16,532 bases of DNA, taken from a virus. Taxonomy: Duplodnaviria; Heunggongvirae; Uroviricota; Caudoviricetes. The position numbers were made by a program. Each line of letters begins with the position of its first letter. Position 1 is the stretch's first letter. Shown piece after piece: positions 3,001 to 6,000 of the stretch. Location: IMG/VR virus record IMGVR_UViG_2541047434_000024; one strand, given 5' to 3'.

Positions 3001-6000
3001 CTTAGTCATCCCCCGCCCCACATAACGCTGACTCAGAACATTGAGCAGCCCGGGATAACCTGCCAGTACTTCACCAATAACCCTATCGATTATTAACGCC
3101 TCTGAATCGGTACAATGTGCCAGCCAGCTTTTTTGATTGCCGTTGATCATATCCCGCAAAAAAGCCTCAAGTTCAGGTTTGTCCAGACCCGCTTTTTTCA
3201 TCCTCCGGAGCGCCTCGTTAATTGCCGTTTTTGTCAGCTTTTTAGAGGTCAGTAATTGGTTGAACATATTTCCCGTCTTACCGTCGCCAATATACGACCA
3301 ACGCCCCCACATACGCAGTTTCCCCTGGATCCAGACACTTTCCAGCGTTTTCAGGCGTAAATGCTCACCGCTTTTGCCTGTAATTTCCGGGTATATCATA
3401 TTTATGCTCACTCACTTTCAATTTTGTAAATCTTCACGCCCAGCCGCCCACCAGAAACGAGCTAGCCGCGCACAATATTGATTTCATCAAACTGCTCGTC
3501 GTCTATGAGAAGTCCGGCATGCGTCAGCGCATCCAGTGGTGCTTTCAGGATATTGTCCAGGTCACGACGGCGCTTATCCGGTGGCTCTGCAATAATCTTT
3601 ATCGCCAGCCTTCCGGACAGGTTTAATTTCAGCCGCTGCTGGCGAACAATAAGTGCCACATCCCGGCGATAACGCTCACCGGCTTTTGATACAAAATATG
3701 TGCTGCCACGACGTCGCCAGTAGGTGTTCACCGTCGGCGGGTAAGGCAAAACAAACTCTATACGCATCAGTAACCTCTTTTACCCGAGCACGCCGGTTGC
3801 AAAGGCGTGATCAAGAAAACGAAAAATTAAATCAACCTGGGAACCATGCTTTTCTTCGAACGCCAGCGGATCCGCATGAAGCTCGTTGTGATGCTCCCGA
3901 CACAGCGGTAGCGTGAAAATATCGTGGGATTTTGTTCCCATTCCGCCCTGACCATGACCAATCAGATGATGAGGATCGTCCGCTGGCTTACCACAACACG
4001 CACACGGCTGTGTCTTTACCCAGCGTGTGTATTTCTCATTTACCCAGCGGCGACGTTTAGGTCGTTTCATGAAGGATTCCGGAGACTCCGGATCAACGGC
4101 AATGCTGACCACCGTCTTTTCCTGTGGTGGGTTCTGTTGCTGGTGGGTGTGAGGCGGTAGCGCAATATTTTTTGTGCGCTGCTTCAGTATGCTGGTGGCG
4201 GTCTGTTCTCCCGGTATGATGTCGCTTTCACGGTATACGGAGCGGATTTTTTCCGCCGGTAATCCCAGAGAGCGACGCGATACTGCCTCAGGTAATGCGT
4301 CCACCACCTGATTGCAGACTGCCCACCAGGATAATTCAGCCAGCGATAATTCCCGCTCCTGCGTGCCATTCATTACATGGCGTATGACGTCAATCATCCA
4401 GGCTGTCAGATTTTGTTGAGTAAGTTGCTCAAGTGATTCGGAGGTCTGGTCGCGCAGCTGGTTGTCGCAGTGCCAGCACAACACCATTGCGCCAGCACCG
4501 TAACTGTGAATAACGGTTTCGCTGTGATGATAATCGCCGTGTGGCCACTGGCAGGATTTCACGTGACGTAATAACCAGTCAGACAGTGCACCAGCGCCGC
4601 CAGCTGCACGAATCACCCGCTCATCGCTGAAAAATGGCAGCAGTGATTTATCTTCCGCCAGCGGCTGGCGAACAGCAGGAACCGCTCCAGATGGCAGCGC
4701 CCGCATGTTTTTCGGTTCCGGCTCCACCAGCACCCTGCCGCGATGAAAAACTGGCAATGATTCACGACCGGGCTTAAGGACCACCAGCCCGAGTTCCGGA
4801 ACCAGAACAGGTCGAAGTAATACCCGCACATTACCTCCAGACGCGCTGACGGTAGCAGGCATGTGTCCGTGGCAGATGTGCACGAACAGGAAGATATACA
4901 GAAACGGTCCAGGTCAGACGATCAGCGTTCAGACTCCGCTCCACACAGACACCGCGACGCAGATACGCCTCTTGAAGCATATCTGCCTCATCGATCGTAC
5001 AGAACAGATAGTGAAACCAGCCATACTGAGGCGCACGAAAACGCCTCCCCTGCTTAATTTCCGGGTCGGCTTCAGAATTGTGGGATTTTATGTGTTGTGT
5101 CATCGGATTCTCCGGTGACAGCAGGTGTCAGTTGTTCAGGCTGACTGCGCGAATTGTAAGGCAATACGCCGGAATGTACAAACAGAAAACCCGTCAGTAA
5201 GACGGGCTTAACAAGCAGGGGCGGTTACTTTAATAATTTCAGTGCCTTTACATCAACTTCAACACTGCTCAGGTCTTTATCAATTTCACCCTCAATTCTT
5301 ACTTTGTCTTTCGGAGAAACATTCTGCCCGGCCCATACGCTGTCATCAATATCCGTGACAATTGTCCCGCTATTGTCACGAAACTCATAACGTTCATCAC
5401 CCACTTTTTTAACGATGCTCCCTTCAAGGATAACCCATGCATCATCCTTCAGTTCTTTTGCCTGCGCTACTGTTGAACGCTCTGCTTCTGGCCCCTGGAA
5501 ACCACCCTGCTGTGCAAAAGCGCCAAAAGACACACCGGAAATAAGTGCTGCAATCAATACCTTTTTCATTCATAGTCCTCTTTCAGAGATGAACATTCAA
5601 ACAGCATTTTCAGTATGGTAAAGCGCGGGTGCGTTGAGGATGCCTGACACATCAGAGGTGGCGGGAGATTACTCCCCCGCCTGGTCTCTTACTTCTCAGA
5701 TTCGTAGTCTACGAAGACAGCGACCTCCGTCTGACCGGTTCGGATTCGCACCTCGCAGAGGTCTTTCCTCGTTACCAGTGCCGTCACTATGACGGTTAAA
5801 CAGATGACGATCAGGGCGATTAACATCGCCTTTTGCTGCTTCATAGCCTGCTTCTCCTTGCCTTTCGGCACGTAAGAGGCTAACCTACATGTGTTCAGCA
5901 TGGATTGAGCCTCAGATTAATGTTAAGCGTCTTGCAGGACGCGTAATGTTAACTGGGGCTTTTCTCTATCTGCCGTTGGTGTTCATGCCCGAGGCAGATA

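Follow-up and report, generated by a model that had tools for sequence, protein, structure and literature searches.

The window analysed here, a stretch of 16,532 nucleotides (nt) from IMG/VR record IMGVR_UViG_2541047434_000024, carries on its minus strand a small toxin gene of the Hok family nested in a longer mok reading frame, a leader with fold-back elements upstream of it and, on the opposite strand, the promoter and the coding region of a Sok-type antisense RNA. We are highly confident that the segment 5627-6048 represents a hok/mok/sok type I toxin-antitoxin module that is intact, is paralogous to hokW-sokW of the Shiga toxin (Stx) phages 933W (an Stx2 phage) and Sp5 (Sakai prophage 5), and lies within a lambdoid prophage of Escherichia coli O157:H7, in the nin region. 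The system itself is already known: hokW-sokW of Shiga-toxin phages was annotated in 1999 and tested in 2021. This copy has all the sequence and structure elements of the module, and it is nearly identical to hokW-sokW. The initial annotation of this DNA had placed the locus at 5689-5965; the elements were indeed found at or near these positions, but the functional extent proved to be wider, from the hok promoter (around 6048) to the fbi element (5627). With tac, fbi, ucb and dcb defined as in PMC9841398, and SD standing for Shine-Dalgarno sequence and MFE for minimum free energy, the features of the locus are the following:

6020-6048, minus strand: putative hok promoter, -10 TAGAAT (6025-6020), weak -35 TTGCGG/TTTGCG (6048-6042); the transcript would start at G6013
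5839-6013, minus strand: hok mRNA leader, matched by Rfam RF01794 ('sok')
6002-6013, minus strand: tac element, the 5' end of the hok mRNA, GGGUGCUUGAGG; pairs with fbi
5966-6003, minus strand: 5' leader hairpin, a 9-bp inverted repeat in which CTATCTGCC (5966-5974) pairs with GGCAGATAG (5995-6003)
5955-5961, minus strand: ucb or anti-SD box, AAGCCCC; paired with the mok SD when the full-length RNA is closed (MFE helix 4)
5910-5913, minus strand: mok SD, GAGG (5913-5910), 8 nt upstream of the mok ATG
5689-5901, minus strand: mok reading frame, 70 amino acids (aa), in frame with hok; start ATG 5901-5899
5885-5909: hypervariable segment, that is, the Sok 5' tail and start site, equivalent to the mok spacer, start codon and codons 2-5
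5876-5880, minus strand: dcb box, GCCUC, within the invariant GCCUCUUAC
5854-5859, minus strand: hok SD, AAGGAG (5859-5854), before the hok start
5689-5844, minus strand: hok toxin gene, 51 aa; internal start ATG 5844-5842
5660-5681, minus strand: stem-loop of the 3' untranslated region (UTR), just past the hok stop codon, with compensatory changes in relatives (helix 19)
5627-5639, minus strand: fbi element, CCUCAACGCACCC; pairs with tac
5858-5886, plus strand: Sok promoter as read from the sequence, -35 TTGCCT (5858-5863), 17-nt spacer, -10 TAACCT (5881-5886); start G5893
5893-5963, plus strand: Sok-type antisense RNA, 71 nt, whose single-stranded 5' tail of 14 nt is followed by a long hairpin and GGGGCUUUU

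The toxin had initially been described as hokD/hokC-like, with a mokC-like in-frame extension preceded by its own SD, and this description was confirmed. Pfam HOK_GEF (PF01848) covers residues 25-66 of the 70-aa open reading frame (ORF) with an E value of 1.1e-22 (79.8 bits, the cut-off being 22), PHROG 251 ('MokW-like host killing') matches the toxin protein with an E value of 2.7e-32, and the toxin is 92% identical to that of hokD and 74% identical to that of hokC. Mok of the window and MokW of 933W are 100% identical. The mok ATG and its SD are invariant among 23 relatives, and the 70-aa frame is open in 71 of 79 relatives; one variant found among the relatives has a 19-aa, out-of-frame mok ending in an ATGA overlap with hok. 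Judged from this layout of reading frame and SD, mok is predicted to deliver ribosomes to hok.

The leader was matched by RF01794 over all model positions (1-157) with a score of 113.5 bits (gathering score 59, E value 1.2e-25), which is comparable to the scores obtained at bona fide loci: 118.3 bits for K-12 hokC, 109.7 for K-12 hokB and 88.9 for R100 hok. At these three loci the match lies on the hok-sense strand and the annotated sok genes lie on the opposite strand; the model thus describes the hok mRNA leader and not Sok itself, and we rejected the match as proof of an antisense RNA. RF01794 bears the name 'sok antitoxin', ends at the hok AUG and reports a strand opposite to that of annotated sok. 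The mRNA start was assigned to G6013 from position 1 of the model; the -10 hexamer proposed for hok aligns with a TATAAT upstream of K-12 hokC.

Folding of the 397-nt hok RNA starting at G6013 (z score -6.2) yielded an MFE structure in which tac is paired with fbi, and ucb with the mok SD. The tac-fbi helix consists of 12 bp and one bulge, and is present in the MFE structures of both the 397-nt RNA and an 834-nt RNA extending further downstream (see below). The duplex has a calculated energy of -21.5 kcal/mol, a value equalled by 5 of 500 shuffled sequences. A duplex search located the helix 49 nt after the stop codon here, 48 nt after it in hokB and 53 nt after it in R100 hok, and the pairs U7-A and G12-C of the window are matched by the compensatory C7-G and A12-U in hokB. 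These comparisons were made with hokB and R100 in place of covariation within the hokD/W subfamily, where both sides of the helix are invariant and give no covariation signal, partly because the loci had been collected with the exact fbi pattern.

The other helices could be assessed among 23 diverse relatives. The 9-bp inverted repeat at 5966-6003, noticed at the outset in the presumed hok leader, is a conserved hairpin with a compensatory change in its third pair (columns 15/47), A-U in 12 and G-C in 9 of the 23 sequences. Compensatory changes were found in the Sok and the 3' hairpins as well. Over the whole structure, 6 pairs were changed on both sides, compared with 1.8 in shuffled alignments (none of 500 reached the observed number) and 0-3 in slid controls. 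The GCCUCUUAC sequence containing dcb is invariant in the window, 933W, hokC, hokB and R100. Alignment with hok/sok loci had been suggested as a way of checking for the conserved fold-back elements; it was carried out, and with the tac-fbi pairing and the full-length RF01794 match these elements are present.

A plus-strand element placed to produce an RNA antisense to the mok start had been proposed as a Sok promoter, and its sequence, TTGCCT-17-TAACCT, proved homologous to the promoters of R100 Sok and of the annotated sokC and sokB, lining up with them column for column. The annotated start of sokC is equivalent to G5893, and the sokW misc_RNA of 933W maps onto window positions 5893-5963. 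The Sok terminator is likewise homologous to theirs; the blocks CTTCTCCTTG and GTAAGAGGC and the GGGGC of the terminator tail are invariant across the aligned Sok loci. A generic consensus promoter scan of the window reported neither the hok nor the Sok promoter. The latter was missed because its -10 hexamer TAACCT matches in only 3 of 6 positions and is below the thresholds of the scan, the former because its -35 hexamer falls under them; the Sok promoter was therefore identified by homology to known Sok promoters in place of the consensus scan. The predicted Sok RNA folds with -30 kcal/mol (z score -5.0) and ends in a U tract; its 5' tail is the complement of the mok spacer and start codon.

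The closest characterized relatives are the copies in 933W, whose record (GenBank AF125520) annotates mokW, hokW and a sokW misc_RNA, and in Sp5. MokW and HokW are 100% identical to the window proteins, the Sok promoter and the Sok 5' tail are the same, and so are the downstream BOF gene with its terminator and the small upstream ORF. Across 5570-6030 the window departs from 933W at only 2 nt, one located in the loop of the Sok hairpin (5936), the other in the 3' hairpin (5681). The locations are different: in 933W the locus is next to attR, after the tail genes, whereas here it lies on the PR side, in the nin region, with DUF551 and DUF968 genes to either side. A segment of 581 bp around the locus is 100% identical in many O157:H7 and O121 chromosomes and 97.6% identical in Stx phages including 933W and VT2-Sakai; 505 E. 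coli records hold it at an identity of at least 99%. In the listed O157:H7 strains each genome has 5 to 9 near-identical places matching the hokW type.

The copy studied experimentally is that of Sp5. There, HokW halts growth and sokW expressed from its own promoter protects, a protection abolished by mutation of the -10 region (Takada 2021, PMC8621323); the primers used for this mutation, YO-421/422, replace a stretch equivalent to 5881-5887 of the window, and the probes of that study match the window perfectly. The antisense transcript was detected by northern blot, and protection by sokW depended partly on RNase III and Hfq (PMC8621323). Mitomycin C treatment led, in a RecA-dependent way, to the loss of sokW, the cause of which was left open, and to accumulation of HokW in the inner membrane; the hokW mRNA remained stable and was not reported to increase (PMC8621323). 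Full-length hokW RNA and two shorter forms were seen, their ends not being mapped, and deletion of the locus from Sp5 halved phage release (PMC8621323). HokW is 44% identical to the Hok protein of R1 (PMC8621323). By analogy, this copy would be expected to behave as the Sp5 copy does, and the refolding and 3'-processing steps of R1 may apply to it.

Comparison with the plasmid systems of R1/R100 revealed the same layout (tac, 5' hairpin, ucb, mok SD, Sok target, dcb, hok, 3' hairpin, fbi), the same placement of the Sok promoter between the hok SD and the mok start, and a fit to the same Rfam leader model. In R100 fbi is directly followed by a terminator, whereas in the window this place is taken by a BOF gene. 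The R1/R100 systems are plasmid-borne and the element of the window is part of a prophage; the role reported for the Sp5 copy is to aid phage release, not post-segregational killing. The in-frame mok extension starting with MLNTCR is shared with K-12 hokC/mokC/sokC (gef), whose leader can be aligned throughout. The differences from hokC lie in the toxin (74% identity, as given above), in the shorter Sok hairpin of hokC, and in IS186, which is located just downstream of hokC; the alignment with the window stops before fbi.

The neighbourhood of the locus includes the following features:

6135-6692, minus strand: DUF551 gene, upstream of hok
5225-5569, minus strand: signal-peptide BOF (YgiW/YdeI-like) gene, Pfam BOF 1.9e-33
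5187-5209, minus strand: intrinsic terminator after BOF, the first strong minus-strand terminator downstream of hok
10920-10891, minus strand: PR-like promoter; the first strong minus-strand terminator after it is that at 5209-5187

A context unlike that of K-12 hokD, with a DUF551 gene and not relBE upstream, and with a signal-peptide BOF gene followed by its own terminator immediately downstream, had been described initially, and this was borne out; the same arrangement of hok and BOF is the one annotated in 933W as mokW/hokW/sokW. K-12 hokD (relF) of Qin resides, like the window locus, in a lambdoid prophage upstream of a DUF968 gene (ydfU), and Qin, whose backbone is the same, has dicF, as the window does. 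Homology of the locus to hokD is limited to 5617-5858, an interval with 93.8% DNA identity that takes in the 3' hairpin and fbi. In hokD, relBE occupies the region before the hok SD, and tac, ucb, the mok start and the Sok promoter are all missing; a post-fbi terminator is retained, and the downstream gene is rem, not BOF. The arrangement of hokD in relBEF, as third gene of the relBE operon, is not encountered in the window, where DUF551 and a 27-aa ORF lie upstream. As hokD shares only 5617-5858 and has relBE in place of the upstream part, the context found in the window represents the intact form and K-12 hokD a remnant. The ORF downstream of BOF (4831-5103) showed no similarity to K-12 Rem. 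The homology breakpoint with K-12 hokD falls inside the 5' arm of the terminator, after 'ACC', with the BOF gene in its place.

The 120 related loci collected by a scan of IMG/VR with the fbi sequence place this junction in perspective. About 105 of them have the terminator AACCCGCTTCGGCGGGTTTT within 10 nt of fbi, as K-12 hokD does; the BOF junction of the window and of 933W was found in only 8. Among 5426 complete E. coli genomes the junction was found in 550 and the fbi part in 3051. The hok-BOF adjacency was checked directly in 933W, with which the window shares a cassette of 976 bp (5178-6153, 97.3%) in which the hok locus and BOF, with its terminator, are preceded by the 27-aa ORF. Among phage records, the 45 with this BOF allele are all from Stx-converting phages, and a similar number, 48, have the hok-BOF stretch. 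In silico, the 834-nt read-through RNA comprising hok and BOF closes tac-fbi. Because no terminator follows fbi in this variant, its 3'-end formation and trimming may differ from those of the R1 model. Since the experimentally validated hokW also lacks a post-fbi terminator, this feature marks a variant and is not a ground for exclusion. The hydrophobic 27-aa ORF, MTWPEAFTTVGIAMAVALVVYSICRWG, at 6055-6138 (minus strand) has the SD GGAGG and starts with an ATG that overlaps, as ATGA, with the stop codon of DUF551. Its end lies just before the hok -35, and its frame is open in 933W despite 6 amino-acid changes; PHROG and Pfam yielded no match to it. The ORF was part of the hokW-sokW clone of Takada 2021 (primer YO-432; PMC8621323).

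Taken as a whole, the window corresponds to the early-to-late region of an O157:H7 lambdoid prophage, with 99.7% identity to strain Z887. The order on the minus strand is a cro-like gene, O/P replication genes, nin-type genes, DUF551, hok, BOF, DUF968, RusA, an antiterminator-like gene and tRNAs; a repressor, DicF and dicB are on the plus strand. Thus hok here is in the sense direction within the early operon on the PR side. In 933W, N through int are on the minus strand, and once the prophage is excised, transcription from there would run across attP into hokW. Of 106 related loci, 93 have hok in the same orientation as its downstream neighbours.

Sequence variation among relatives is concentrated in the region where Sok meets the mRNA. 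In 84 distinct full-length relatives the entropy was 0.7-0.85 bit per column in 5885-5909; it did not exceed about 0.4 in other parts and was almost nil in the hok coding sequence. A somewhat wider segment, 5879-5914, occurs in 21 variants among prophage loci that are otherwise 91-97% identical, giving Mok N-termini such as LNTC, LYTR, SHKC, NGKS, LDTC and others. To judge from the alignments, this pattern looks like diversification of antisense specificity. This copy and Sp5 have the same recognition variant, and therefore their Sok RNAs should cross-act. The idea that co-resident copies avoid a common Sok variant was considered and found unsupported: the only readable pair from the same genome (L040/L072) shares a variant, in a sample that is too small.

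With these elements the locus would work as follows. A weak promoter would give rise to a stable hok mRNA starting at G6013. In the full-length RNA, tac would be paired with fbi and the mok SD covered by ucb, so that the RNA would be neither translated nor bound by Sok. The convergent Sok promoter would produce the short, unstable 71-nt antisense RNA, whose single-stranded 5' tail would pair with the mok start region; translation of hok being dependent on that of mok, Sok would thereby block Hok synthesis, and the duplex of Sok and hok mRNA would be cut by RNase III. Upon loss of Sok, Mok and then Hok would be translated, and the 51-aa peptide would insert into the inner membrane and depolarise it.

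Several observations weigh against an intact module of this kind. For this copy the identification relies on sequence and folding, the transcript and toxicity data being from the Sp5 copy only. The MFE structure of the 3'-truncated hok RNA is a local 5' hairpin and not the open tac-ucb form of R1, and the terminator scan revealed no intrinsic terminator between fbi (5627) and BOF (5569). In the closest genome, Z887, the prophage looks defective: the integrase and RecE genes are partial and a DUF6645 gene has an internal stop. Because of this apparent defect, this copy may have no part in phage release. The defective carrier and the missing canonical post-fbi terminator could also speak for a decayed, non-functional hok relic, similar to the five K-12 hok loci inactivated by insertion sequence (IS) elements, point mutations or rearrangement, the more so as K-12 hokD is truncated and K-12 hokC is adjoined by IS186. 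We consider a relic very improbable: every element is intact, the protein is identical to toxic HokW, the Sok promoter is identical to the one needed for protection, and the 581 bp have been kept nearly unchanged in the E. coli records mentioned above. That the ORF, the promoter-like hexamers and the inverted repeats are chance features of an intergenic stretch, a view to which the silence of the generic promoter scan might lend some credit, has a practically negligible probability, being refuted by the Rfam (1.2e-25) and Pfam (1.1e-22) E values, the fold z scores (from -5 down to -6) and the conservation of the sequence across thousands of genomes.

A different question is how a working hok/sok module would be activated in this setting. 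Instead of plasmid-style decay of Sok after loss of the element, hok and BOF could form a bicistron of about 830 nt that is switched on by read-through of the phage early operon, transcription in the sense direction, from PR in this prophage or, in 933W/Sp5, from PL across attP, occluding the Sok promoter and titrating Sok on induction. The lack of a terminator between fbi and BOF, with the first strong one after the PR-like promoter at 5209-5187, is consistent with this, as are the closed tac-fbi helix in the MFE structure of the 834-nt RNA, the sense orientation of hok in the early operon here and in 933W with co-orientation in most related loci, and the RecA-dependent loss of sokW on induction, for which the cause was left open (PMC8621323). 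The argument is, however, purely inferential, BOF may have its own promoter, Rho-dependent termination is possible, and the hokW mRNA was stable, but not increased, after mitomycin C (PMC8621323). We therefore regard activation by read-through as possible but doubtful. A more comprehensive proposal is that the BOF gene has replaced the post-fbi terminator and, with the sense position in the early operon (PR here, PL across attP in 933W/Sp5), created a hok-BOF bicistron with an internal fbi, that antiterminated read-through on induction silences the Sok promoter and swamps Sok, and that the hypervariable Sok target defines specificity groups, this copy and Sp5 belonging to the same cross-protecting group. 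In this full form the proposal is speculative and rather unlikely to hold. If true, read-through silencing would account for the RecA-dependent disappearance of sokW, whose cause was left open by Takada et al.; collision of read-through with the Sok promoter is a plausible cause of that loss.

Returning to the module as identified, an intact paralogue of hokW-sokW, the value of the finding is in the correct annotation of a known system: RefSeq labels the locus 'Hok/Gef family protein' only, with mok and Sok left out. The observations on the terminator, the hypervariable segment and the orientation are modest refinements, although the absent terminator and the sense orientation in the early operon lead to testable ideas on how induction triggers the toxin. 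The only experimental study used a K-12 lysogen carrying Sp5 alone, whereas O157:H7 genomes hold several near-identical copies. If these share the Sok recognition sequence, as this copy and Sp5 do, their antitoxin RNAs should act in trans, and this could buffer the activation of HokW in natural strains.

Some further features of the prophage were noted. The DicF small RNA is encoded at 13236-13287 on the plus strand (Rfam, 76.7 bits, full length), and in the closest genome dicB is annotated just downstream, as in K-12 Qin. Beyond the integrase remnant, Z887 has three DUF1076 genes. At 351-523 on the minus strand there is a full-length match to the Rfam model STnc100 (102.7 bits), downstream of tRNA, TerB and DUF3927 genes. 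Two tRNA genes at 1296-1369 and 1473-1545 (both minus strand), annotated in the closest genome as tRNA-Arg and tRNA-Ile, lie directly downstream of a helix-turn-helix gene in the position of the Q antiterminator.

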